Program-made: the position numbers and the translations under genes | Source of the DNA: Escherichia phage AV112 | DNA length: 64,000 nt | Reading direction: 5' to 3' (one strand) | Sequence record: OR352942.1 | Shown here: positions 7,050 to 37,689 of the stretch, piece after piece | How the letters are laid out: each line of letters opens with the position of its first letter | How positions within the stretch are numbered: the stretch's first letter is position 1 | The notes under the pieces: model-generated | Told to the model about the DNA's origin: nothing | Database searches by the model: none | What the model saw: the letters and a program-made list of their open reading frames with translations, nothing else

Positions 7050-8150
7050 TTACGCTGTGAAGATTTTATCCCACATCGCAACAACTGCATCTCGGTTATA
7101 CTTTTTCCATACTGCTTCAGCACGTTTAACTCGAGCTTCGTATGTGTCAGTGAATTCTAATACAGCTTTTGTGTAAAGCGCAACTACTTCTTTCTTAGGA
7201 GTAGAGGAATCAATTTCTACACGCACAGTATCTGGGTCGTATTCGAATGTCGCATGAGGATAATCCTTAAAAACTAACTGGATTACAGGGACACCTTTAG
7301 AGATGGCTTCAATAGAACTATTCTCTACTGTACCTGTGTCAGGACACGTATTAATAAGTGCTTTAGCTGTTTTAAGACGTTCCATGATTTCACTGTGTGG
7401 AGCATCAATAATAACAGGATATTTAGCTGGTGGTGCCCATTTACTAGGACAGTATCCTACACCATTTTCGCCTAGTGCTTTAATTGCTTCAAGAGCAACA
7501 TCGGTGCGGCGCATCTTAGTGTCATAACGTTGTGCACTAATAATCAGATCAGTCGCCGGAAGAACTTCAGGTTTCTCATTCAAACAAATAACCGGGTAAT
7601 CTTCGGCTTCAAACAACGGATTTGCTCGCCAATAATCATAATCAATTTTGTCAGTCAGAGCTGAAGTCATATGGCAATATTTACGTTCAAATTCACGGAA
7701 GGCTTTAGTAGGAGCATAACTCTTACCACCGTTCTTATGAATTTGAATAGTCTGGTCCCAAATTTGAACAATGCCACGAGATACCGGTTCAAATGGTGTT
7801 GCCATAAAATTCTTATGAACTTTAGAGAGACCTGCGTCTTTAATTGCCTGAACGGTTAGTTTAGTCGGTTCCATAGTAACAACAAAATCGTATTCATGGA
7901 TGCCGGCTAGTTCAACAATCTTACGAGCCATAGTATAACTCATACCTAGACTGAATTTAGTCAGATGACCAACAGGATGGTGTGTAACTTTCCAGTCACC
8001 AAACGTGTCATTATCAAAGCCGATATAATCAATATCAGCACCAATAGAAACTAAATATTTCAACACATTTAAATGTACTGCTTCAAGGCCACCTTGTACA
8101 CGGTCAGGATTAAATGGGACTGCACGAGATGGGATAAACATAACTTTCAT
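7050..8150 (-). CDS. putative GT-B glycosyltransferase (366 aa), candidate DNA sugar transferase
   Basis: N-terminus MKVMFIPSRAVPFNPDRVQGGLEAVHLNVLKYL resembles the GT4-family start; lies between rIIA and 39. Confidence 0.55.
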   Translation of the reverse strand: MKVMFIPSRAVPFNPDRVQGGLEAVHLNVLKYLVSIGADIDYIGFDNDTFGDWKVTHHPVGHLTKFSLGMSYTMARKIVELAGIHEYDFVVTMEPTKLTVQAIKDAGLSKVHKNFMATPFEPVSRGIVQIWDQTIQIHKNGGKSYAPTKAFREFERKYCHMTSALTDKIDYDYWRANPLFEAEDYPVICLNEKPEVLPATDLIISAQRYDTKMRRTDVALEAIKALGENGVGYCPSKWAPPAKYPVIIDAPHSEIMERLKTAKALINTCPDTGTVENSSIEAISKGVPVIQLVFKDYPHATFEYDPDTVRVEIDSSTPKKEVVALYTKAVLEFTDTYEARVKRAEAVWKKYNRDAVVAMWDKIFTA

Positions 8151-8192: not shown

Positions 8193-10010
8193 TTAGGACA
8201 TCCATTCTTTACGAAGTTCTGAATCGTCACCCAACAACATTTCAAAGAGTTCTTTCCAATTTTCAGGAAGTTTAACTACGTCGTACACAGGGTTCTGAAT
8301 CATTTCACGATATTCTGACTTTTCAAGGGAGCCTAATCCCTTGATGTATCGAATACTATGCTTAGGAAGTGTATCTTTAGCTTCTTCATACTCAGCTACA
8401 GTATAAAACCATTTTTGAGTTTTGCCAATTTGTGCAATAATTACAGGCGTTTTAACAAAGCGAATACGTCCTTGTTCAAACAATTCAGGCCAATTACTAA
8501 AGAAAGCAAGCAAAGCCGGATAAATACTTCCAAGACCATCATGATCGGCATCGGTCATAATTGCAATATTACGATAGTTCGTATTCTCTGCCTTTTCACC
8601 AAGAATAAGACCTGTGATAGCACAGATATCAAAGAGCTCTTTGTTCTTCATCATATCGGCATATGACATACCCCAGCTATTCATCACCTTACCACGTAAT
8701 GGGAATCCGCCGTGTAGTTCACGGTCACGAACATCAATGAGATAACCAATTGCCGAATCACCTTCTGTTAAAAACAATGTCGTATCTGCATCTTTACCAC
8801 ATTGGTTAGCTTTAATATGCTTATGAACCTTAGCTTTAGTTGCCTTTTTAGCTGCTTTAGTTTCTGCAGCCTTTTCTGCCGCCAATTTACGAGCTAATGC
8901 TGCTTCAACAATAGGCATAATCAAGGCTTCGTTTTTAAGAAGTGCCTGAGCAATTTTCTTAGCATCTAATTGGATATGATTACGAATATCACCATACGTT
9001 GACGTTAAACGTTCTTTAGTCTGAGAATCAAAACGCATGTTGCTCATGTCTCTAATAAACATCAACATTGTGAGGCATTCTTTAACACGAGCTTTAGTGA
9101 CTTCAATACCCTTATATTTCTTTTTAATGCCAGGCAAAAGATGTTCGCAAATATCATCCATTACACATTCAACATGATGACCACCATTTTTAGTATGGAT
9201 GTTATTCACATAAGTTAAATGACGGAAGCCATCTGGTGATGTTGTGAATGCTATAGAGACTTTATCATTTTCTTGAATGATGTTATCTTCACCAAATTGT
9301 TTAGCAAATCGTTTAAAATTACCATCAACCTTTTTACCATTAAATGTGAACTTGATATCAGGATAAACGACTGCCAATGTTTGAAGACGGTCTAAAGTAA
9401 TATCTAAATAAATTTGAGATAAATTATGCTCTTCAAATGAAGAGAAATCAGGAGTGAAGATTACTTTAGTGCCTTTACCTTTAGATTTCTTAGAAGACCA
9501 TGATTTGTTTTCCATTCCGTTTGAACAGTTAACAGTGATTTCATTTTCGCCATCTGACGTGATGCCTGTAAACAACGTAGAGAAGATATTAGTTAAACTA
9601 CTCCCGACGCCGTTCATACCACCAGTCTTGCGTTCAGAGTCGTCACCAAAGTTACCGCCAGCCTTTGGAATAGTCCAGGCTGCTACAGGCCCAGGAATCT
9701 GTTCACCATTTTGGTCGGTGACCATTGCTTGAGGAATACCACGTCCGTTATCTTCCACTGAGACTTGATTATTTTTAATTTGCACATCAATTTTATTTGC
9801 AAACTTAAATGATGTACGAATAGCTTCATCAACCGAGTTGTCAATAATCTCATCGATTAATTTAACCAGACCAGGAACATATTCAACTTGTTGATATTTA
9901 CCAAACAAAAAACGCTCGTGGGCTTCTTTGGCCGAAGAACCAATATACATGCCACTACGTTTCTTAATATGTTCTACATCTGACAATACCTTAATTTCAT
10001 TTTTAATCAT
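8193..10010 (-). CDS. 39: DNA topoisomerase II large subunit (GyrB-like ATPase), unsplit 605-aa form
   Basis: GyrB-type N-terminus with motifs IDEIIDNSVDEA and EDNGRGIP plus a Toprim-like C-terminal half; no separate gene 60. Confidence 0.9.
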   Translation of the reverse strand: MIKNEIKVLSDVEHIKKRSGMYIGSSAKEAHERFLFGKYQQVEYVPGLVKLIDEIIDNSVDEAIRTSFKFANKIDVQIKNNQVSVEDNGRGIPQAMVTDQNGEQIPGPVAAWTIPKAGGNFGDDSERKTGGMNGVGSSLTNIFSTLFTGITSDGENEITVNCSNGMENKSWSSKKSKGKGTKVIFTPDFSSFEEHNLSQIYLDITLDRLQTLAVVYPDIKFTFNGKKVDGNFKRFAKQFGEDNIIQENDKVSIAFTTSPDGFRHLTYVNNIHTKNGGHHVECVMDDICEHLLPGIKKKYKGIEVTKARVKECLTMLMFIRDMSNMRFDSQTKERLTSTYGDIRNHIQLDAKKIAQALLKNEALIMPIVEAALARKLAAEKAAETKAAKKATKAKVHKHIKANQCGKDADTTLFLTEGDSAIGYLIDVRDRELHGGFPLRGKVMNSWGMSYADMMKNKELFDICAITGLILGEKAENTNYRNIAIMTDADHDGLGSIYPALLAFFSNWPELFEQGRIRFVKTPVIIAQIGKTQKWFYTVAEYEEAKDTLPKHSIRYIKGLGSLEKSEYREMIQNPVYDVVKLPENWKELFEMLLGDDSELRKEWMS

Positions 10011-26782: not shown

Positions 26783-27124
26783 TTAAAAGAATTTAAATTT
26801 TTTCTTGGTCCGTTCATTAAAAGCTTGTTGTACTTGCATTGTAACACATTTTTCAACATGCGGTGCAAGTTCTGCTTTTCTGTCCTGGTCAAGAACTGCA
26901 AAGTCCATTACGATTTTACCATCAACCCAGTCTAGTTTTGTAATATAGACTATATGATGAGAACCATCTTCAAGTGTAATCAGAATCTCTTGAATGACAT
27001 TTTCCATTGCTGAACGGATAATTTTAAGAGATTCATTAAACACTCGTTCTTTGCGAATGTCTTCCCCTTCCGAAGAAGGGGATTCATCAACGATTTCTAG
27101 ATTTAAATCATCGAGATTATTCAT
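26783..27124 (-). CDS. 40: gp40-like protein (about 113 aa; start at MNNLDD overlapping the uvsX stop)
   Basis: Position between uvsX and 41 as in T4; call by synteny only. Confidence 0.45.
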   Translation of the reverse strand: MNNLDDLNLEIVDESPSSEGEDIRKERVFNESLKIIRSAMENVIQEILITLEDGSHHIVYITKLDWVDGKIVMDFAVLDQDRKAELAPHVEKCVTMQVQQAFNERTKKKFKFF

Positions 27125-28289
27125 CGAAATCTTCCATTTCGTCAAGGTCATTTTCTATATCTGCTGCAGACGGAGCATCAGAAGTTTTAACCGGAACTTT
27201 AGTTGTTGCTTTGCAATTAATAAGGTCGTTAACAGCGTCATCAACTTCTTTAATAGAAGAGATAGCACCTAGTTTATATTTAGTTTCAATTGCATCTCGG
27301 AAAGGTTTGTGTTTAAACAACGGTCCCCAGAATTCTACACAATCAGTAGCTTTAGCACGCCATGATTTTTCTTCACGAATCATTTCGCCTGTTTCTTCGT
27401 CAAGGAATTCACGAGCATACCACCCGGCTTTAGGCTTAACTACAAAACCAATTTCAGTTGCCATTTCTAACAAGCCACTGAACGGGTCGATACCACCATC
27501 AAAATTAACTGTGATTGGGAAAGTAGATTTTTCTTTAACGGTGCGAGATTTTTCTGCTTTCAACGTGAAGTCATAACCGGTCAATTCTGTACCTTCTTTA
27601 ACCTGACGTTTAGAGATAAAGAATACAGTGTTAGCAGAGTAAAGAATACCTGTACCACCACCCATAATCTCTTTAGGATACAATCCGCCGATTTCCATTG
27701 CTGTATGGTTAATTGCAACACACGGAATATCTTTAATAGTCAGATAAGGAGTCACAATGCGGAACAGAGATTTAAGTGCCTTAGCACGAGACATATCACC
27801 TACAACTTTCTCGTTCAATGCATCTTCGGTTTCTTTCTTAGATGCAGTATTACCGATTGAATCGATAAAGATAATAACTTTATCACCGCGTTCAATCGCG
27901 TCAAGCTGATTAGTCATATCAACTTTAAGTTGTTCGACAGATTGAATCGGAGTATGAACTACACGGTCTAAATCAACACCCATTGAACGAAAATAAGATT
28001 CTGAAGCACCAAATTCTGAATCATAGAACAAACAAATTGCATCTTTATATTTCTTCATATATGCTGCAACCATGGTCAGTCCAAACAACGTTTTAAAGTG
28101 TTTAGAAGGAGCAGCAAAAATAGTTAAGCCTGATTGCAACCCAGCATTCAGTGCACCACCTAATGCAATATTCAACATCGGAATACGAGTAGGGACTTCA
28201 TCACGATTATTAAACAGCTTAGACTTAGTCAAGTCTGCAGTCATTTTAGAAGTAGAAGCTTTAATCAGACGAGATTTTAAATCAGACAT
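27117..28289 (-). CDS. uvsX: UvsX recombinase (RecA/Rad51-like), 390 aa
   Basis: RecA-like core, Walker A-like SKHFKT region, acidic C-terminal tail; size of T4 UvsX. Confidence 0.9.
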   Translation of the reverse strand: MSDLKSRLIKASTSKMTADLTKSKLFNNRDEVPTRIPMLNIALGGALNAGLQSGLTIFAAPSKHFKTLFGLTMVAAYMKKYKDAICLFYDSEFGASESYFRSMGVDLDRVVHTPIQSVEQLKVDMTNQLDAIERGDKVIIFIDSIGNTASKKETEDALNEKVVGDMSRAKALKSLFRIVTPYLTIKDIPCVAINHTAMEIGGLYPKEIMGGGTGILYSANTVFFISKRQVKEGTELTGYDFTLKAEKSRTVKEKSTFPITVNFDGGIDPFSGLLEMATEIGFVVKPKAGWYAREFLDEETGEMIREEKSWRAKATDCVEFWGPLFKHKPFRDAIETKYKLGAISSIKEVDDAVNDLINCKATTKVPVKTSDAPSAADIENDLDEMEDFDE

Positions 28290-28342
28290 TGTATTTTTCC
28301 ATAGGCATCATTATATTTTACTCATGTTTAAAAGATAAGACG

Positions 28343-28370
28343 ATTATATACTAAGGGTTATACAGCATTT
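28343..28370 (-). promoter_or_regulatory. middle-promoter-like sequence for uvsX
   Basis: Minus strand aaaTGCTGTA (one mismatch to the MotA box) - 12 nt - TATAAT. Confidence 0.35.
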
Positions 28371-28382
28371 AAAACTTTAAAC

Positions 28383-28399
28383 AGGCTCTTAACGAGCCC
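28383..28399 (-). terminator. terminator-like hairpin after the P-loop kinase gene
   Basis: Minus strand GGGCTC-gttaa-GAGCC followed by a T-rich run. Confidence 0.4.
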
Positions 28400-28937
28400 A
28401 TTTGATAATTTCTGTAATCAAATTATTACGTTCGCTTGCATTAAATCCTATAACTTTGTTAGCACCATCATGATTAAGTAATTGATACGTTTGGATTTTG
28501 TTATGAATTGCAAACTCTTCAAAATATGAAATGACTGTATTAAAACCGAATGAAGACAAAGTAATAAGGTCGTCTTCAAAACTTTCAGTCATTTCGTTAC
28601 GTGTTAAAATAATTGTGAACACATCATGGTTTTGGCAAAGACGAACATAATCCTGTTCATAAACGTCAAGAACCGAGTCCACATCTTGTCGAATACGTCC
28701 ATAAACCCAGTTACTAATATATCCACGGTCTAACAGATAAATCTTAGTAGGGTCTAAATAATTCAACATCGTTTCGAAACAGCCAACTTCATTTCGAGAT
28801 TTAACATCGAAACGTCCATCAACTGTTCGTTTAGGGAAATCAATCTTTACATATCTTTCACTAATTTCCATTATGTCATTAATGAAAGTTGTTTTACCAG
28901 CATTATCCGGGCCATCTACTAAAATAATTTTAGCCAT
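28389..28937 (-). CDS. P-loop nucleoside/nucleotide kinase (thymidylate-kinase-like), 182 aa
   Basis: Walker A GPDNAGKTT near the N-terminus and LLDRGYIS (DRY-like) motif. Confidence 0.5.
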   Translation of the reverse strand: MAKIILVDGPDNAGKTTFINDIMEISERYVKIDFPKRTVDGRFDVKSRNEVGCFETMLNYLDPTKIYLLDRGYISNWVYGRIRQDVDSVLDVYEQDYVRLCQNHDVFTIILTRNEMTESFEDDLITLSSFGFNTVISYFEEFAIHNKIQTYQLLNHDGANKVIGFNASERNNLITEIIKWAR

Positions 28938-28938
28938 T

Positions 28939-29838
28939 TTATTCCTCGATTACGACATCTTCATATTTAGGTATATTATACGGTGAAGAAATTAAAGCAT
29001 TAAAGTAGATGAACTCACCAAGACCTGGATGGAATACTTCTTCAGGATTTTCGAAATATTGAATCTTCGGTCTTCCTTTAAGAATTTGATAGTACTCAGT
29101 TTTAGTTGGTTTAAAAATTCGAATCAGTGCTTCTTCAGGATACTTATTTCTGTCGAAGCTACTATTTGGATCGGTTATATAAAGCGGTTGACCTAATTGA
29201 ATTGCACATTCAACCACTTGTTCAAAACGATAACACGGGTCACTAATTCGAAATGGATGAAAAATACCATCTAGATGAATAGGAGCCAAATCACCTACAA
29301 GACGCTGCATGATGGAAGGACGTATAACTTTCTGGGTTACGATAATCTTATTACCATCTGCACCTGCGTTAACCAGCACTTCTTTTTGACGTTCATTCAA
29401 CACAGTAGTTTGAAGTGAACGATTAACCGACAACATGTCGGTTTTTAAGAATTCGTCAATGTAAAAACGTGGTTTATTAGGGTCTGCAGTGATATTGAAA
29501 TTGAATTCTACATCAAAAGCGCCGTCATATCCAGTGATATCTGTGATTAGAAAATCACAATCATAATAAGCAATTAATGAATCAACCACAAATTCATTTT
29601 CAGACCAGAAATATTTACGAGTGTTATACGCGTTATCTTTATACCATAATGGAACAAACTTAAATTCTGGGAAAAGACGTTCGCATTCTTTAATATCAGA
29701 TGCATTACGTGGATATGTAATCACATCACCCGGATTAGCACGGTGCAAATGAAGTTGGAAGTTGCCATCCTTAAGGATAGCATACTGTCCAGTTTCATAA
29801 GACCGCATACTCAAGATAGGTACGCGGAAAATAGCCAT
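28939..29838 (-). CDS. hypothetical protein (299 aa) occupying the T4 beta-glucosyltransferase position
   Basis: ORF between uvsX and 42; no similarity to T4 beta-gt that I can recognise. Confidence 0.45.
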   Translation of the reverse strand: MAIFRVPILSMRSYETGQYAILKDGNFQLHLHRANPGDVITYPRNASDIKECERLFPEFKFVPLWYKDNAYNTRKYFWSENEFVVDSLIAYYDCDFLITDITGYDGAFDVEFNFNITADPNKPRFYIDEFLKTDMLSVNRSLQTTVLNERQKEVLVNAGADGNKIIVTQKVIRPSIMQRLVGDLAPIHLDGIFHPFRISDPCYRFEQVVECAIQLGQPLYITDPNSSFDRNKYPEEALIRIFKPTKTEYYQILKGRPKIQYFENPEEVFHPGLGEFIYFNALISSPYNIPKYEDVVIEE

Positions 29839-30554
29839 TAGTCAAGAAATCCTTTAACATAATCAAAATCACGTTCAAACACATGGGCACTTACCATGGT
29901 ATGAGTATAATCACCAACTTCTACACCACATTCGTTAGCGATATAATGAAGTAATTTTCCTTGGAGATAAAAATCCAACTGCATAACAACAGCACAGTTC
30001 TGAGAACGCATATGACAGTGGGTATAAAGCTTACCATCACGAATATAATAAGTCACTGAGTCGGTACATGGATATTCAAGTGTTTCGTCTGAATCAAGCA
30101 AAGCCTGATCAGAACTTTCTAGAATTTGGAACACAACTCTTCGAGAGTTAGGTTTTTCTTTAAGTTCTTTTAGAAGAGTTGGTAACTGGGCCGCAATGCG
30201 AGGACCATAGAAAGTGTTGAAGTTCGCAGGCAAAGCATCTGATTTTGGTTTAGAAATAAATTTAGCGACGTTAGGATATGCCTTAAATGCTTCTTCTGCA
30301 TCAGTACCACCAGAAATCATAAATTTCCAGAAATCTTCAGCATATTCATAAGAGATGCGATTAATACGTGGGTCGGTCATTTTGAATGATGAAGGGGTAT
30401 CAACAACTACTGTCATAGACCCAATTTCATTACAACGTCCAATACGAGAATCAGTTACGAATTCCGGGTTTTCTAAAATTTCACGATTGACGGCTTTAAA
30501 TGCGGATTGAAAATCTGCGGCTTTAATATATTTCATTGTGTTATGTTTTCCCAT
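29838..30554 (-). CDS. 42: dCMP hydroxymethylase (thymidylate-synthase fold), 238 aa
   Basis: Motifs SRRVVFQI and CTDSVTYYIRDGKLYTHCHMRSQN parallel T4 gp42 SRRGIMIY and CTNTVQYLIRD...NMRSND as recalled. Confidence 0.75.
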   Translation of the reverse strand: MGKHNTMKYIKAADFQSAFKAVNREILENPEFVTDSRIGRCNEIGSMTVVVDTPSSFKMTDPRINRISYEYAEDFWKFMISGGTDAEEAFKAYPNVAKFISKPKSDALPANFNTFYGPRIAAQLPTLLKELKEKPNSRRVVFQILESSDQALLDSDETLEYPCTDSVTYYIRDGKLYTHCHMRSQNCAVVMQLDFYLQGKLLHYIANECGVEVGDYTHTMVSAHVFERDFDYVKGFLD

Positions 30555-30738
30555 GTTTACCTCAATACAGTTATTATATACTCAATTCATAAAGCTTATT
30601 TGAATTTCTTAGCGATGTTGATATAACGTAGAGCTTCGGCATCGATACTTCCAAGGACGCTATGAAGGAACGCGTCGACATAGTATTCTAGTTGAACATG
30701 TTCTCTTTAATCACTTTAGCCGCTTTAGTTTCAAACAG

Positions 30739-30757
30739 GCCCATAAGGGCCTTTTTA
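30739..30757. other. GC-rich hairpin with flanking T/A runs in the 42-to-U32 intergenic region
   Basis: GGCCC-ataa-GGGCC followed by TTTTT on the plus strand and preceded by A-run on the minus strand. Confidence 0.3.
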
Positions 30758-30833
30758 AGAATTTGTTCGTTGTTGTTAATTTTAATAGTCAAAATCTCTT
30801 CGTTAAGTTGGTGGTTAAAAGTTTTTCTAGAAA

Positions 30834-31994
30834 TCATTCTGGGTACCTCAAAGCGTCATCAGAGTTAGTTATATCAATAATAGATATAGAGTTTTCCGAT
30901 AACCCATTTTTAGATAACTGACGTTTATAATATCTTTCACAATATGTACACGTCGTCCCACAGATTTCATTAGCACAATCGAAATCTGGATGTTTGAACC
31001 ACCTTTTTTCTAAAAAGCCATCTAACAAAGAGGTTTCAATATTTACCGTATGTGAAAACTCAGTCTCATTTTCAAGAGTGAAAATGGTCTCTAAAGGCTT
31101 CCACAATTCCAACAAATTACCTTCAAATTTTTCAGAAGCATAAGCTTCAAGAACTTTCAAAATGTAGTCTGTGCTACCTGTACGTCCTGAAACTTTGAAT
31201 TGAGTGATACCAATATCATTATAAAGTTTCAAATCTTGAGGACGAACAAAACGAGTTCTCAACCAGTTAAATGGATCTGTATCACGAGCTTTAATACAGT
31301 GCTGCATTGGATATCCATTTAAGGATTTGGCATCATCTACTGTAACATCAGTGCTATGGAAAATATAGCAAGAGTCACGATAACTACAATGTGTTGTATA
31401 CCCTTTACCAGCATTAGAACAGAACTCATTTACAAGAACTTCAAATATTATATTGTTCTTATTACAAAACTCTGCTGCACGCTTCAGGAAAGAAACTGAA
31501 CGGTTCTTATGAATTCCACAGCAGACCTTTTTGATATTATATTGGTCATGCAAGTATTTGATTTGAGTTACAGCATCGACATGTAGAATTGTTGAAACTT
31601 CAATCTCAATGTCTTTATTGACTTCACGAACAATTTCCATAACAACAGGGTTAGCGATAGTAATACGCCAAACGCCTATTGACCAAAGATACTGAACATA
31701 ATCCTGAATAGCTTTCTTCTTCCACTCAACTAGTTCTCTTTTTGAACCAGGATTTATCGTGTTGAGTGTATAGTTAAAGCAAATACCTAATTCGTTACAA
31801 CGTTTAACGTAATCTTCTAACATCTTTTTGTCAACGTCAGGAAGCCTAAAATCAGGTCTGGCTGCTACAAAAGCCATTTCTCTTGTAGAGCCGTATACTT
31901 CGTTTATCAAGCTATTAGGATAAGTTTTATTGAGCTCTACGATTTTATCAAGAAGAGCTAAATCAAAATTCGTTCCGATTTTAAAGGTATTCAT
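30834..31994 (-). CDS. U32-peptidase-family-like protein with C-terminal Cys cluster (386 aa)
   Basis: N-terminal region VYGSTREMAFVAARPDF resembles the U32 start; central NEFCSNAGKGYTTHCSYRDSC resembles the U32 signature; C-terminal CANEICGTTCTYC. Confidence 0.35.
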   Translation of the reverse strand: MNTFKIGTNFDLALLDKIVELNKTYPNSLINEVYGSTREMAFVAARPDFRLPDVDKKMLEDYVKRCNELGICFNYTLNTINPGSKRELVEWKKKAIQDYVQYLWSIGVWRITIANPVVMEIVREVNKDIEIEVSTILHVDAVTQIKYLHDQYNIKKVCCGIHKNRSVSFLKRAAEFCNKNNIIFEVLVNEFCSNAGKGYTTHCSYRDSCYIFHSTDVTVDDAKSLNGYPMQHCIKARDTDPFNWLRTRFVRPQDLKLYNDIGITQFKVSGRTGSTDYILKVLEAYASEKFEGNLLELWKPLETIFTLENETEFSHTVNIETSLLDGFLEKRWFKHPDFDCANEICGTTCTYCERYYKRQLSKNGLSENSISIIDITNSDDALRYPE

Positions 31995-32048
31995 TTTTGC
32001 ATCTCGCGTTAATTGTTGCGATGGTTTTTGCAGGTCTTACTTAAATTA

Positions 32049-32450
32049 TTATAGATTCGGTTTATATGATTTAAATGTTTCGAATTCGCCTTTATTCATA
32101 AGAGCTTTGAATTCGTCAGGACGCATAGCTTTGTCGTCGATAATCCAATCATATACTGGTTTATGTGTTAGCAAATTATGGTACTTCAATCCAATGTTTG
32201 CCAAGTTCTGAATCAGACTTGGGAGAATGTCAATTGCTATACGACCAGGACCGACTGACTTCATACCACGAGCAGTGTAAAGCGTTATGGTATGCCCTGC
32301 ATCATACAGGGCATTAATGGCAGACACCATTTCGACGTCTGGTTTGAAGTTCACGTAATCACGATTGTTATTCCACTCTGTTATACAATCATCGACATCA
32401 AAACAAAGATTAAGCATGTTTTTTACACGGGGCATTAGATTCGTTCCCAT
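32049..32450 (-). CDS. HAD-superfamily phosphatase-like protein (133 aa)
   Basis: Motif I-like FDVDDCIT, motif II-like TLYTARG, motif III-like DWIIDDK. Confidence 0.45.
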   Translation of the reverse strand: MGTNLMPRVKNMLNLCFDVDDCITEWNNNRDYVNFKPDVEMVSAINALYDAGHTITLYTARGMKSVGPGRIAIDILPSLIQNLANIGLKYHNLLTHKPVYDWIIDDKAMRPDEFKALMNKGEFETFKSYKPNL

Positions 32451-34120
32451 TGATGAGTGATATCGCCACCGATTGGACGATAGGAAACACCAGTTTCTTT
32501 ATCAGTTAGTACCCATTTACCAGGATTTTTTGTAATCAGAGTAGCCGTTACAGGTTCTGCTACGTCATAACTAATAGAGCCGTCCTGAAGTACACGGCCC
32601 ATGTTACGTAATTGCTTAGTCAGAAGTTCCATACCTTTATAATATGCGGCTACCGCTTTAAGTGGATTATTCTTGAAATAACCACCTAATGCAATCCAGA
32701 TAATTGCCACTGCCAAATGATGATACTCGTTAAACGAACTCATCTTTCCATATTTGTAAACTAATGGATTGATGTTAATAGTCACATTACAAGTTGTTTC
32801 ATCAATAGTAAACTGTCCCCAGGTCGGATTAGCGTTGAATTCATCATACCCTGAAACAGCATAAAGCACTTTAGCTTCGTCATACAATTTTGGTCCGTAA
32901 ATCTTGGTTTCGCCAAAATATCCACGAGGGTCGATAAACTTGACTTCGCCGTTATCAGTAATCATAGTATTACTGAAGTTCGGGTCACCATGAATAACAG
33001 AGTACTGTCCCTGAGAACGGTTATGATAACGAATAAGGTGTTCTAAAGCTTGTTTCAACATTGGCTTCAGACGCCCAATCTTAGTGTAGTTCACATGTGT
33101 GATTTTACCAAATGAATCAATCAGTGGTTGAATACTTTCACAACGATCAATAACTTTCGTATAGAATTCTTTAGTGAAATCACGACGAACAGTTTCAGGA
33201 CTTACAAAATAAGTGTCTGTGCTGAATTTCAGTGCGTCTAAAATTGCATCAACAATTTGTGGACGAGCAAGACTCGATTTGGATTTAATATATTCAAATG
33301 CTGGCTTACCTTTAATGCGTTCCATTTCAAAGTTATTTTCATTAACAGAAACTAACTGAGGAACTGAATCTGATTTCACTTTAAGATACCATGAAATCTC
33401 ATCTTTCTGAAGAGCTCGGCCCTGTTCGGTTAATGCGAATTTAGTTACAGTTTCTTCACCAATTTCAACGGCATTAAAACTACGATTAAGTTCACGAACT
33501 TCATGAGCTTTTTCAAGTTTAGGCATATCACCTAAATCAATTAGATTCATAAGCTCTGATTTATTGAATGCACTGCCGTAAAGGAATTCTACGAAATCAC
33601 GTCCTTTGCAGTATTCATGAATTTCCTCATCAGTAGAACCCATATAGAATTCCCAGTCTTTGAACTGATAAATTCCTACAACATTACCACCTGTTGAACC
33701 TACGTTAGTGATATTTTCACCGTCGAAATTATATCGACATTCGTCGCCCTTAACATAGATTGCGTTAACATTCCAAGACCACGAACCAAAATCAGGAATA
33801 ATATCACACCAGTTAACAATTACATTATGGCCGTCTAAATCTTTGTGCAATTTAGCAAGAGCATAAGCAGAACCATATGCTTCATCAACTGTACGAATAG
33901 TCACATTGAACCCTTCTTGCTCACAATAAGCTCGAACAGTTTCAGCAAATTTTGAATGAACTACTACAATAATTTCATCTGCGCCAAGGTCAGAATAAAT
34001 TGTATACAAATTGCTCAGAATAGTGTCTTGTTTATAGTTAACAAGCACCTTAGGAATATGATGCGTTATTGGATACAAACGAGTTGCCAGTCCAGCACCA
34101 AGAATAACAGCTTTTTTCAT
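32435..34120 (-). CDS. bifunctional sugar-1-phosphate nucleotidyltransferase / sugar kinase (561 aa)
   Basis: N-terminus MKKAVILGAGLATRL (G-x-G-T-R nucleotidyltransferase motif); C-terminal kinase motifs HGDPNFSN and FIDPRG. Confidence 0.6.
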   Translation of the reverse strand: MKKAVILGAGLATRLYPITHHIPKVLVNYKQDTILSNLYTIYSDLGADEIIVVVHSKFAETVRAYCEQEGFNVTIRTVDEAYGSAYALAKLHKDLDGHNVIVNWCDIIPDFGSWSWNVNAIYVKGDECRYNFDGENITNVGSTGGNVVGIYQFKDWEFYMGSTDEEIHEYCKGRDFVEFLYGSAFNKSELMNLIDLGDMPKLEKAHEVRELNRSFNAVEIGEETVTKFALTEQGRALQKDEISWYLKVKSDSVPQLVSVNENNFEMERIKGKPAFEYIKSKSSLARPQIVDAILDALKFSTDTYFVSPETVRRDFTKEFYTKVIDRCESIQPLIDSFGKITHVNYTKIGRLKPMLKQALEHLIRYHNRSQGQYSVIHGDPNFSNTMITDNGEVKFIDPRGYFGETKIYGPKLYDEAKVLYAVSGYDEFNANPTWGQFTIDETTCNVTININPLVYKYGKMSSFNEYHHLAVAIIWIALGGYFKNNPLKAVAAYYKGMELLTKQLRNMGRVLQDGSISYDVAEPVTATLITKNPGKWVLTDKETGVSYRPIGGDITHQWERI

Positions 34121-34161
34121 GTTGTGGTCCTCATTGGTAAGTAGGAGTATTGTACACTATT

Positions 34162-34305
34162 CTAGTTAAAGCATTCATACTTTGCTTGTAGTCCAATCAT
34201 AATCCATCCGATTATAAGAGTCGGAATCATTACTGGAGCCGTTAAGCTCCAGTAGATAGTCATGACAAGCATCAATAGTAAAAGTCCTATTGTTATTGCT
34301 TTCAT
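34162..34305 (-). CDS. small membrane peptide (47 aa), below ORF-track cutoff
   Basis: Hand translation MKAITIGLLLLMLVMTIYWSLTAPVMIPTLIIGWIMIGLQAKYECFN; ATGA overlap with the SIS gene stop. Confidence 0.35.
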   Translation of the reverse strand: MKAITIGLLLLMLVMTIYWSLTAPVMIPTLIIGWIMIGLQAKYECFN

Positions 34306-34937
34306 TGTTCGCCTCGTAACATGGCACCTAGTGCACCGCCAGGGTGGAACTTAAGGAAGTCATTAGAGGTAAATCCACGTTCAGACGAAAGGTTGATAGC
34401 AAACGTATCGATAAGCGCTAACAACAATGTAGTGGACATGGTCGGAGCCAGAGAATTCTCATCAACCTCTACTGCGATGCCTGTACAGAACGTATAATCA
34501 AAAAGAGCTTCGTATTCTTGTGGAATGTCCGGGTTACAATGCAACAGAATCTGTTTGACGTTCGGACGAATCATTTTAAGATGCTTAGCCACGCCTATCA
34601 TTTCTTCAGTTTTACCAGAACGACTAATATGAATCAACACATCATTAGGCGCAATGAATCCTGCATCACCGTGAGAATAATGTCCAGTGTTCAAGTACAT
34701 ACTCGGGATACCGAGTGAAGCAAATGTCTCAGAAGCTTTAGTTGCAATATTAGCATTCTTACCAACACCTGTAATAATTACTCGGCTTTCATAATTACTA
34801 AGTCCAGGACGTCGAAGAGTTTCTAGAATAGCATTATAACGAGCAGGGTTTTGACTAATTACTTTGGCCATAGCGGCCAAAGAAGAAGCTTGTTTTATGA
34901 TTGCGTCAATAGCGATAGTAATAGGAGTAGTTTTCAT
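34302..34937 (-). CDS. SIS-domain sugar-phosphate isomerase (arabinose-5-phosphate isomerase / GmhA-like), 211 aa
   Basis: SIS-domain features: ITGVGKNANIATKASETFASLG and HISRSGKTEE. Confidence 0.55.
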   Translation of the reverse strand: MKTTPITIAIDAIIKQASSLAAMAKVISQNPARYNAILETLRRPGLSNYESRVIITGVGKNANIATKASETFASLGIPSMYLNTGHYSHGDAGFIAPNDVLIHISRSGKTEEMIGVAKHLKMIRPNVKQILLHCNPDIPQEYEALFDYTFCTGIAVEVDENSLAPTMSTTLLLALIDTFAINLSSERGFTSNDFLKFHPGGALGAMLRGEQ

Positions 34938-34977
34938 ATTTCTCTCATTTAATTAGTTTGCCGTCCATGTCATTATA

Positions 34978-37689
34978 TCAAAAATCGAACATATCGAACA
35001 GAGATGCTTTCTTCTCGTAATCGAGTTTCGCTGCTGATGTGAATCCTTCAAGTGGTTTAATAAATGTCTTCTCAAGGAGAACAGTGTAGTCCATCCAATG
35101 AAGTACGTCGTCTTTAATTAAATCTGTGATTTCAGTACCAGAAGGCCATGCGATACATTTATCACCGAATGGGTTTCCTTCACGTAAAGGCAGAACATAT
35201 ACTTTTTCACCTTCTACAACTTGTGGTGCATCGATATTACCTTTGATAGCACGGTTATACGTCAGAATTCCACGAATATGGAATGGGCATTTAGGACCAG
35301 GGAATCCACCTACATCATATTTAGCAATGTTATTCGCAGAAGATACTGACGCGATGCTAATATAATTCAATTGACGGAATTCTTTTTCAAACTCTTTAAA
35401 ATATTCTTGTAATGATTCTTCGCCTTCCTGAAGCATACGACGAATACATTCTTTAAGAGCTTTCTGTACTGCTTTAGGAGTCGAAGATTTCTGAGTCTCT
35501 AGACCCATGATTTTGAGTTTAGGCTCAGCGTATCTGGTTCCTTCCATATCCCACACGTTTAATGCATAACGTTTCTTACCAGTCCAGAATCCACCAATAC
35601 CTTTAGAACCGAGTGGAGGCCCAGCGATAGCTTCTCGGTCCATGAACATTAAGTGTTGTTTATTGTTCATGTATTCACACATTTCACGGAAACCTCTATC
35701 AATAGCTGGTTCCATACGTTCACGTGCAAACTTATCTAAGAAGTCTACCCAATGGTTGGTATCACGGAATTTAGATTCACCAACCTTATCGATAATTTTA
35801 TCAGCAGATACGTAAATAGAGTCTGTATCACCATAAAGAACGAAAGCTTCACCTTCTGTGCCACAAACTTCATTCAGATATTCATTAACTTTACGTTCAA
35901 TCCACTGTAAAGCCATTTGCCCGAATGTTGTGATTGCAGTAGCATTACGCAAATCGTAATAACGGAACCAAACGTTGCCAAGTGCACCATAAAGTGAGTT
36001 GATAAGCAATTTACGGTTAATTTGGGCAGTCATACCTGCAACTTCAGTACGTTGAGCTCTAAACAACATTTCATTAAGAGATTTAGCAGACAACTTTTTA
36101 ATCTTTTCTTTAATCTCATCACTGAAGTCGAAACGATAATCAACATCTAATGGTTCGTCAACAGAAAGATTAGGATTATGCAATGCCTCTTTAATTATTT
36201 CACCATTACGTTGAGCTGCAAGCATGTAACCTTTATGTTCTTTACGTTGATTAAAGACCTTAGTGATTTCAGTTGGAACAACACCGTCACGGTCTTTATA
36301 ATACATCATGCCGTTAGGAGAACAACTGTACACATCAGAAGGACGTTCAGCAACAGCGTTAATATAATCATGTAATGGAGCTACTTTAAACGTTCCTGCT
36401 ATTGTTTCTGGGCTAATATTCACTTGGCGAATAATACTTGGATACAGAGATGTAAGGTCGAAACTCATTACATATTTGTATCGATTTGGAATAGGTTCCT
36501 TAACAAAAGCGCCGGGATAAGGTTGAACCGGATGAGAACGACCTTGTGGAATCACCTTGTTCTGCTCTTTAAGGCTATTAAAAATAATAGCATCCCATGT
36601 TTTAATTGGGCTAAACACAGATTGAATCTGTATCTTAGCATAATAACCCATGTCCAAACTCAAGTTGATGAACTGACGTTTAGCATCAATTTGCAATACA
36701 CGATACACGTCGATAATGTTATAAGAAATATATCGTTGGTGATTGCTTTCACGAAGCTTAGAAATAGGGCCGTCATATTTCAGTTTACCAACGTTCAATT
36801 CAAATTCTGAAATGTAATCCAGAGAATACGACGGTTGATTGGTAAAAGAGAATTTTTTGTAAAGGTCAATGTAATCAAGAACAGAGATACCGAACAATGT
36901 AATGATTTCACGAGAACCATACATGTTTTCGATAACTTTAACACGAGTTTTACGATGTGGTGATAAACGTTTCGCAGTAGATTCGCCAAAAATATTCTTG
37001 ATTCGGTTATACACATATGGAATATCAAATGACTCAACGTTCCATCCAGTCAAAATGACAGGAGTTTTCTGTTGCCAGAAGTTGAGATATTCCATCAACA
37101 ATTCTTTTTCGTTATCGAACGGCATATAAATGATTTTATCGATAATTTCGGATGGGACTTCATCACCGCCTTGTTCTTGAAGCTTAGCCGCAATTTCGAT
37201 AGACCATTCTTCCACATTCCCGTATGGAGAATTCAAAAGGTCAAATACGTAGAACCTGTCGTCAATTGAGTCATAATGAGTGATAGCATCAATCGGATGT
37301 TTTGCTTGTGACGGCTCAGGGAACCCGTCTGGAGATGTTACTTCGATGTCGAAGTTAGCCACACGAATTTTTGTATGGTCGTATTTGATTTCATAGTTAT
37401 AAGTGTCAGACAAATACGCCAATTTGAAATCGTCCATGCCAAGTGCTTCAAGTCCGATATCTTCCATGCGTTTAATCCATTGGGAGGCATCACGCATATT
37501 GGCGAACAACTTACGAGTACACGGCTTACCGTAGATATCGAAATATTTCGTAGCCTGACTTTCCGGACAATGAGCAAACAGTGATGGTTTATATTCTACT
37601 TCACGAGTACGTTCACGGCCGTTAGAATCGATGTAACGTTCAAAAATTGAATCACCAATCTGTTCAACCGTTAAGTAAAATTCTTTCAT
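34978..37689 (-). CDS. 43: DNA polymerase (family B) with 3'-5' exonuclease, 903 aa
   Basis: Exo motif FDIEV, polymerase motifs SLYPS and YGDTDS; size of T4 gp43. Confidence 0.95.
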   Translation of the reverse strand: MKEFYLTVEQIGDSIFERYIDSNGRERTREVEYKPSLFAHCPESQATKYFDIYGKPCTRKLFANMRDASQWIKRMEDIGLEALGMDDFKLAYLSDTYNYEIKYDHTKIRVANFDIEVTSPDGFPEPSQAKHPIDAITHYDSIDDRFYVFDLLNSPYGNVEEWSIEIAAKLQEQGGDEVPSEIIDKIIYMPFDNEKELLMEYLNFWQQKTPVILTGWNVESFDIPYVYNRIKNIFGESTAKRLSPHRKTRVKVIENMYGSREIITLFGISVLDYIDLYKKFSFTNQPSYSLDYISEFELNVGKLKYDGPISKLRESNHQRYISYNIIDVYRVLQIDAKRQFINLSLDMGYYAKIQIQSVFSPIKTWDAIIFNSLKEQNKVIPQGRSHPVQPYPGAFVKEPIPNRYKYVMSFDLTSLYPSIIRQVNISPETIAGTFKVAPLHDYINAVAERPSDVYSCSPNGMMYYKDRDGVVPTEITKVFNQRKEHKGYMLAAQRNGEIIKEALHNPNLSVDEPLDVDYRFDFSDEIKEKIKKLSAKSLNEMLFRAQRTEVAGMTAQINRKLLINSLYGALGNVWFRYYDLRNATAITTFGQMALQWIERKVNEYLNEVCGTEGEAFVLYGDTDSIYVSADKIIDKVGESKFRDTNHWVDFLDKFARERMEPAIDRGFREMCEYMNNKQHLMFMDREAIAGPPLGSKGIGGFWTGKKRYALNVWDMEGTRYAEPKLKIMGLETQKSSTPKAVQKALKECIRRMLQEGEESLQEYFKEFEKEFRQLNYISIASVSSANNIAKYDVGGFPGPKCPFHIRGILTYNRAIKGNIDAPQVVEGEKVYVLPLREGNPFGDKCIAWPSGTEITDLIKDDVLHWMDYTVLLEKTFIKPLEGFTSAAKLDYEKKASLFDMFDF

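Follow-up and report, generated by a model that had tools for sequence, protein, structure and literature searches.

The gene at positions 28939..29838 on the minus strand of the stretch of Escherichia phage AV112 DNA analysed here (OR352942.1; 64,000 nucleotides, below called the window) encodes a 299-aa protein, GT299, which is predicted to be the first arabinofuranosyltransferase acting on 5-hydroxycytosine (5hoC). By its model it is a compact GT-B-fold protein, and it is the orthologue of RB69 gp46:47, DLP3 gp79 and Thanatos TH1_063. The literature of 2026 already describes both the family and the role proposed for it, so the finding is known and the gene itself is no discovery. The original prediction, which proposed a second, divergent transferase or a new modification enzyme, was thus borne out in part: the protein is a predicted transferase with a GT-B fold, but its family and role were already in print and the reading as a divergent beta-glucosyltransferase (beta-gt) was rejected.

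GT299 is a real gene. The 299-aa ORF had been placed at 28939–29838, and these positions proved to be the exact extent of an ATG-initiated ORF that tblastn recovered over its whole length in 348 of 50,697 phage records, with identities from 24% to 100%. Homologues align from the first residue onward, which confirms the start codon, whereas the plus-strand ORFs within the same interval were all 55 aa or shorter and unsupported. The window stretch 28000–31000 was spanned over at least 80% by 151 phage records, and its source is an RB69-like Mosigvirus. GT299 was matched by 138 protein clusters at E ≤ 1e-3, and an exhaustive profile search of 1.84 billion representatives gave 230 clusters in total; the family is therefore small and, as far as seen, restricted to phages. 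The phages in whose records GT299 was present had as hosts Escherichia, Shigella, Acinetobacter, Klebsiella, Serratia, Enterobacter, Proteus, Yersinia and Shewanella.

Neither Pfam nor NCBIfam contained a match to GT299, no glycosyltransferase Pfam model was matched by any of 60 diverse homologues even at E-values up to 5, and the family profile found nothing among the PDB sequences (best E 0.62). The same 60 homologues have 28 invariant residues in common. The corresponding PHROG was phrog_3891 (E 1e-155), listed as 'function unknown' in PHROGs, and in databases the protein is named 'hypothetical protein' or 'RNA polymerase binding protein', with 'glycosyltransferase' in one record. The RNA polymerase label is carried by UniRef/GenBank entries of the family from Mosigvirus, LC53 and IME341, for example; it had no support in our analysis and looks like a propagated misannotation. 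The isoelectric point of GT299 was 5.1 (family median, 5.2), but UvsX is acidic too, so that an acidic value does not discriminate between DNA and a nucleotide as acceptor.

The structure was modelled by AlphaFold with the 60-sequence alignment, as the single-sequence prediction was unusable (pLDDT 35). The alignment-based model (pLDDT 95.2, pTM 0.90) was composed of two alternating beta/alpha domains, both Rossmann-like beta/alpha/beta, with a cleft between them, which is the arrangement of the GT-B superfamily. Structure prediction and a Foldseek search had been called for by the original prediction, and a GT-B fold was what they returned; its statement that the ORF could not be matched to beta-gt or any known fold held for the sequence, with no Pfam or NCBIfam match, but not for the fold, which an alignment makes recognisable. 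The top Foldseek matches were non-hydrolysing UDP-GlcNAc 2-epimerases and MshA (E about 1e-6); among predicted viral structures, other viral glycosyltransferases were the best matches outside the family. The BFVD model of RB69 ORF047c (182 aa) superposed on the N-terminal part of GT299 and that of ORF046c (116 aa) on its C-terminal part, with a TM score of 0.98. The model thus describes a compact GT-B protein that is an orphan in sequence; a retaining or inverting chemistry is more than its fold alone settles. In the alignment, R197, D200, K246 and H270-P271-G272 of the C-terminal domain were invariant and E275 was 83% conserved; they are candidates for the residues that bind the nucleotide sugar. 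The mean frequency of the top residue in the family was 0.59 in the N-terminal (acceptor) domain versus 0.50 in the C-terminal (donor) domain, which fits an acceptor that is shared and sugars that vary.

Judged by its sequence, GT299 is a clear member of the RB69 gp46:47/DLP3 gp79 family, and we saw no substantial difference from either protein. The window protein was 99% identical to RB69 gp46:47 over residues 1–299; in the RB69 record the ORF is split into two pieces (ORF047c and ORF046c) by a sequencing error, while in the window it is intact. TH1_063 of Thanatos, a protein of 300 aa, was 47.5% identical to GT299 and has the same synteny. More distant enzymes were clearly different. The GT4-type GT-B enzymes compared (sucrose-phosphate synthase 6kih, BshA 6n1x, MshA 3c4q, PimA 2gej and WaaG 8b5s) were 7–12% identical to GT299, which is about 60–100 residues shorter and whose proposed acceptor, a modified nucleobase, is unlike theirs. 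The GT4/Glycos_transf_1 family HMM gave no significant match to GT299 or to the 60 homologues, and the E-X7-E motif was not conserved in the family: the window protein has E267-x7-E275, but position 267 is variable, and only E275 and the invariant H270 are conserved in this region.

T4 beta-gt has a GT-B architecture and glycosylates the oxygen attached at cytosine C5. Its gene lies between gene 42 and uvsX, as does GT299 (Thomas 2018, PMC6024577), so the placement of the ORF in the beta-gt position was correct. Neither sequence nor close structural similarity placed GT299 in the T4 beta-gt family, and the divergent beta-gt was rejected as the primary reading on this ground. T4 alpha-glucosyltransferase (PDB 1y6f) was 12% identical to GT299, is longer (394 versus 299 aa) and uses another sugar and another acceptor.

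All large ORFs of the GT299 region are carried by the minus strand, and the order from the DNA polymerase gene (34978–37689, minus strand) to the UvsX gene (27117–28289, minus strand) is the direction of transcription. Downstream of the polymerase gene lies a gene for a SIS-domain protein (34302..34937, minus strand; Pfam SIS, phrog_5670), which by these matches and the literature is a predicted arabinose-5-phosphate isomerase homologous to RB69 gp55. It is followed by the gene of a 561-aa homologue of AfhE and RB69 gp52:53 (32435..34120, minus strand), with an N-terminal Pfam NTP_transferase domain and a kinase-like C-terminal part, a putative bifunctional sugar kinase and UDP-arabinose pyrophosphorylase according to the literature. 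Between these two genes we noticed a conserved hydrophobic 47-aa ORF (34162–34305, minus strand), which overlaps the end of the isomerase gene and is annotated in HY126; its copy in KLB31 is annotated with a transmembrane domain. The next gene encodes a 133-aa HAD-type phosphatase (32049..32450, minus strand; phrog_1238), the homologue of AfhF and RB69 gp51, which would convert Araf-1,5-P2 to Araf-1-P as described for HY126 AfhF (PMC13326640). A 386-aa peptidase-U32-family protein homologous to RB69p050 comes after it (30834..31994, minus strand; Pfam PF01136, E 6e-11, and a weak UbiU match).

The gene immediately upstream of GT299 (29838..30554, minus strand; Pfam Thymidylat_synt) had been taken for gene 42. 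Its 238-aa ThyA-family product is not a hydroxymethylase: the closest solved relative is the ThyA-like enzyme of HY126 (9iqc; E 6e-162 over 238/238 residues in the PDB search), and RB69 gp48 is a 5-hydroxy-dCMP synthase that depends on flavin and O2 (PMC13326640). By sequence, there is essentially no difference between the window protein and the HY126 enzyme that was crystallised (9iqc/9ir2/9iqu). Many GenBank records still name its homologue thymidylate synthase or dCMP hydroxymethylase. The assumption that the ORF directly adjoins uvsX was also mistaken, since the gene of a 182-aa P-loop, thymidylate-kinase-like nucleotide kinase intervenes (28389..28937, minus strand; RB69p045 homologue, phrog_761 with E 7e-45, weak TIGR00041 and AAA matches). 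The TAA stop codon of the ThyA homologue overlaps the ATG of GT299 in a TAATG junction; the kinase gene starts 1 nt past the GT299 stop codon, and its ribosome-binding site, GAGGAA, lies within the 3′ end of GT299. Promoter and terminator scans of 27000–35200 gave no excess over shuffled sequence (24 versus 31 expected and 5 versus 4.6, respectively), and our claim of a transcription unit is limited to the overlapping and abutting codons of the cluster genes.

Our analysis itself established the ORF, its fold, its orthology to RB69 gp46:47, its gene context and its distribution; what is said here about the modification chemistry and about the activities of the enzymes encoded nearby comes from published papers. 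Lee et al. (NAR 2026, PMC13326640) showed that RB69 DNA carries beta-D-Araf-(1,3)-alpha-D-Araf O-linked directly to cytosine C5, so that the modified base is an arabinosylated 5-hydroxycytosine and not hmC as first believed. RB69 gp48, the 'gene 42' homologue, was found experimentally to be a flavin-dependent 5-hydroxy-dCMP synthase using O2; gp159, a gp1-type dNMPK, turns 5hodCMP into 5hodCDP, and 5hodC is readily incorporated into E. coli DNA (PMC13326640). The sugar-activation genes were assigned through homology to AfhE and AfhF of HY126, of which AfhE is reported to be a UDP-arabinose pyrophosphorylase (PMC13326640). In the same paper RB69 gp46:47 and DLP3 gp79 are called 'arabinosyltransferase 1' as a predicted role; the later glycosyltransferases act on RB69 DNA in vitro, whereas the DLP3 glycosyltransferases assayed individually were inactive on 5hoC-DNA ('data not shown') and DLP3 gp76 and gp77 needed each other. 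The authors could not say if the first arabinosylation takes place on the mononucleotide or on DNA (PMC13326640). Literature that we found, which did not include He et al. 2026 (Nat Chem Biol) and Mahler et al. 2025 (Cell Host Microbe), held no report of transfer activity for GT299 or an orthologue, and papers citing those two said nothing specific about the protein.

In the mechanism that we propose, the ThyA-like enzyme would produce 5-hydroxy-dCMP, which would be phosphorylated and then incorporated instead of dC. Three enzymes encoded just upstream, the HAD phosphatase, the SIS isomerase and the 561-aa kinase/pyrophosphorylase, would supply UDP-Araf. GT299 would move D-arabinofuranose from UDP-Araf to the C5 hydroxyl and so form the alpha-linked, base-proximal arabinose, to which GT366, described below, would then add the second, beta-1,3-linked one. 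We hold it to be probable that GT299 is the first transferase on 5hoC, and infer UDP-Araf as its donor. The fuller statement, in which DNA is the acceptor and is glycosylated after replication, is one towards which we lean only slightly; it is favoured by analogy with the T4 glucosyltransferases and by the action of the later glycosyltransferases on RB69 DNA in vitro.

Gene neighbourhoods were compared in 58 IMG/VR loci together with HY126 and Thanatos, which were searched with the module proteins of the window. A ThyA-type homologue lay immediately upstream of the GT299 homologue in all loci with upstream sequence except four (L049, L052, L053 and L055), and the same order was present in HY126 (where the 299-aa protein is XAN60474.1), Thanatos, KLB31 and X20/LC53. 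Almost everywhere in this set, a TMK-like kinase adjoined the GT299 homologue or was located within the cluster. The ThyA/GT299/kinase triad was kept even in distant metagenomic phages, with GT299 homologues of about 38% identity and about 350 aa, and in these no SIS, NTP-transferase or HAD genes were found within 10 kb. Since the triad persists without the sugar genes, the tightest partner of GT299 is the hydroxylase and not the sugar module. The window gene itself lies within the modification cluster. One of the distant metagenomic phages (L035) has a gene for a Flavodoxin_2 (FMN-reductase-like) protein at 8790–9293 on the plus strand, directly upstream of the triad, a neighbour that fits a flavin-dependent hydroxylase in need of reduced flavin. 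No sugar-activation genes were present within 10 kb in L035, so an NDP-sugar of the host may be used there.

GT366 (7050..8150, minus strand), a 366-aa homologue of RB69 ORF003c/gp3, is flanked by rIIA and the gp39 topoisomerase gene, about 21 kb from GT299, and is the predicted second arabinosyltransferase (Thomas 2018; Lee 2026). It had no Pfam match, yet it matched PDB 9iqz/9ir0, entitled 'phage HY126 glycosyltransferase (with UDP)', with E 2e-252. Unlike GT299, proteins of this type are confined to di- and tri-arabinosylating phages and are predicted to add the beta-linked outer sugars. We considered GT299 and GT366 as recent paralogues and rejected this, as they have no similarity (BLASTP E 0.76). 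GT366 was present in only 211 records: Escherichia and Shigella phages of the Mosigvirus type had a single copy, and the listed Acinetobacter phages had it in two places per record, while no Serratia or Shewanella record had it. According to the cited literature LC53 is mono-arabinosylated and Bas46 di-arabinosylated; Thanatos is mono-arabinosylated with a single arabinosyltransferase, and DLP3 is tri-arabinosylated with two extra glycosyltransferases (Lee et al., PMC13326640). The number of sugars follows the copy number of GT366, with 1, 2 and 3 sugars going with 0, 1 and 2 copies. The GT299 block is present in LC53, and GT299 occurred in mono-arabinosylated phages (LC53, Thanatos), in di-arabinosylated ones (RB69, HY126 and other Mosigvirus) and in DLP1-type Acinetobacter phages, relatives of the tri-arabinosylated DLP3. 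This presence in all three classes makes GT299 their common denominator.

Fusions of GT299 to other domains were also found. At least eight representative clusters carried a C-terminal P-loop dNMP-kinase domain (P0228, P0233, P0259, P0261, P0223, P0215, P0238 and P0251), and one cluster had the reverse order, with the kinase before GT299 (P0235), which indicates that the fusion arose independently. The fused kinase-like domain has the motif EGFDRIGKD[ST]; that of P0228 matched Pfam Thymidylate_kin (E 1e-4), and similarity to the 182-aa kinase of the window was weak (E 2e-5 in a 10-sequence search). That both orders exist implies that the clustered kinase and the transferase are connected, functionally or physically. 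At least eight further clusters had an HAD phosphatase-like domain with the motif DFDGIF...GDD.YD fused to the N-terminus (P0139, P0149, P0152, P0154, P0170, P0179, P0201 and P0222). Such an HAD–GT299 fusion is located between the ThyA homologue and the SIS/NTP-transferase genes in L051 (9452–11107); this position and the fusions themselves tie GT299 to the sugar branch. A free-standing homologue of the fused HAD domain occupied an AfhF-like position in L048, whereas similarity between this domain and the 133-aa HAD protein of the window was not detectable.

Several observations speak against GT299 as the first transferase. Non-hydrolysing UDP-GlcNAc 2-epimerases share its fold and stand at the top of the Foldseek list, and none of the 60 members has a recognisable glycosyltransferase family or a conserved GT4 EX7E motif. 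These points suit an epimerase-like modifier of nucleotide sugars, or a non-catalytic accessory protein binding UDP-sugar or DNA, with all transfers left to the GT366 family; but phages that add a single arabinose also require a transferase, and they lack genes of the GT366 type; we regard this explanation as very improbable. A different activity was reported for the syntenic orthologue TH1_063: the His-tagged protein converted UTP and xylose-1-P to UDP-xylose in an in vitro LC-MS assay and showed no transfer to DNA, dCMP or dCTP, all three of them acceptors without a 5-OH group (PMC12838424), unlike the role proposed for GT299. If this applied to the whole family, GT299 would be a UDP-pentose pyrophosphorylase making the activated sugar. 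This seems highly unlikely, because the fold is GT-B and not that of a nucleotidyltransferase, GT299 has no NTP_transferase Pfam match, and a real NTP_transferase domain is found in the 561-aa neighbour, whose HY126 homologue AfhE is the reported UDP-arabinose pyrophosphorylase; the fold and the domain of the neighbour were our reasons for rejecting a UDP-xylose pyrophosphorylase as the primary reading. In addition, the control of the Thanatos assay was a no-enzyme reaction, so that co-purified E. coli enzymes could be responsible, and GT299 homologues also occur in phages without nearby sugar-activation genes. Lee et al. reinterpreted TH1_063 as the single arabinosyltransferase of a mono-arabinosylated phage (PMC13326640).

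In a rival account GT299 is still the first arabinosyltransferase, but it works ahead of replication or depends on the neighbouring kinase for its action. In the pre-replicative version, GT299 would arabinosylate 5-hydroxy-dCMP, the TMK-like kinase would phosphorylate the bulky Ara-5ho-dCMP, which a T4-gp1-type dNMP kinase may refuse, and the polymerase would insert the glycosylated nucleotide; alternatively, the kinase-like protein would be an obligate subunit of the transferase. Such a coupling is suggested by the near-universal adjacency of the kinase gene in the family, including the distant metagenomic phages without sugar genes within 10 kb, and by the independent fusions in both orders, although fusion and adjacency indicate functional linkage and not consecutive steps. 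5-Hydroxycytosine in DNA is a substrate of the host endonuclease III and Fpg, so exposing the bare base there would be risky, which counts for modification of the nucleotide. RB69 gp159 already phosphorylates 5hodCMP, so the clustered kinase would have no unique role in RB69, but it may be the sole 5hodCMP kinase in phages that are not T4-like. The inactivity of the individually tested DLP3 glycosyltransferases on 5hoC-DNA and the mutual dependence of gp76 and gp77 point in the same direction; the negative result was given as 'data not shown', however, and its causes could be trivial. Both the T4 paradigm and the action of the later glycosyltransferases on DNA favour glycosylation of DNA, and the ready incorporation of 5hodC into E. 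coli DNA also weighs against the rival. We consider it a possible but rather unlikely course of events. If true, it would be a pre-replicative, nucleotide-level route to hypermodified DNA, unlike that of T4, and the phage would never expose bare 5-hydroxycytosine, an oxidative lesion, in its DNA. Glycosylation of DNA by GT299 after replication is still the reading that we prefer.

The U32-family gene of the cluster (window 30834–31994, minus strand; also L061 5983–7394 and L002 7462–8852) encodes a protein for which Lee et al. give only the label 'sugar or heterocycle reductase' (PMC13326640). In each of the 221 phage records with a homologue, the identity was 80% or more; between Thanatos and the window, U32 was 82% identical, while the polymerase was 67% and UvsX 75% identical. 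No Acinetobacter phage was among the matches, and the gene was not found within 10 kb of the cluster in Acinetobacter phages, Pseudomonas phage PspYZU05 or JS98-like coliphages. In the four loci lacking the ThyA homologue (L049, L052, L053 and L055), a U32 gene was present within about 2 kb downstream of GT299 and was directly adjacent in three of them. In many genera a gene for a type II chorismate mutase (Pfam CM_2, E 1.3e-9, above the curated cut-off) was located directly between the U32 and ThyA homologue genes, downstream of U32; KLB31, Thanatos (TH1_066), PEi20 and Yersinia, Pectobacterium and Proteus phages were among those that had it.

RlhA and TrhP are U32-family proteins. Prephenate is the hydroxyl donor of both TrhP and RlhA, the latter forming 5-hydroxycytidine in 23S rRNA, while the alternative tRNA enzyme TrhO uses O2 (PMC13602947). 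Chorismate mutase makes prephenate, so that the U32 protein and the mutase look like an O2-independent cytosine C5-hydroxylase, and by analogy with RlhA and TrhP they may back up the O2-dependent flavin enzyme. This idea was not stated in the literature found, which did not cover He 2026 and Mahler 2025. The slot of the mutase gene in Mosigvirus (window 30555–30837, minus strand) contained only a 49-aa ORF (30688–30837) without a CM_2 match. The phage mutase seems to have been lost or replaced in Mosigvirus, and any U32 enzyme there would then depend on prephenate from the host. Besides several internal cysteines, the U32 protein of the window has a cysteine cluster at its C-terminus, DFDCANEICGTTCTYC (CX4CX3CX2C), which by analogy may be an Fe-S site of the kind present in RlhA. 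An Fe-S site is also carried by UbiU/UbiV.

Bare 5-hydroxycytosine is a substrate of base-excision repair, so the addition of the first sugar is probably an essential step. DNA with arabinosyl-5-hydroxycytosine shields RB69-like phages from restriction enzymes, the DNA glycosylase Brig1 and type I CRISPR-Cas (PMC13216743). These phages are common candidates for phage therapy, and the enzyme that adds the base-proximal sugar, which is probably GT299, would perform the committed step of this protection. The practical value of the analysis is a correct annotation of GT299 and two leads, the coupling between the glycosyltransferase and the kinase and a possible anaerobic hydroxylase.
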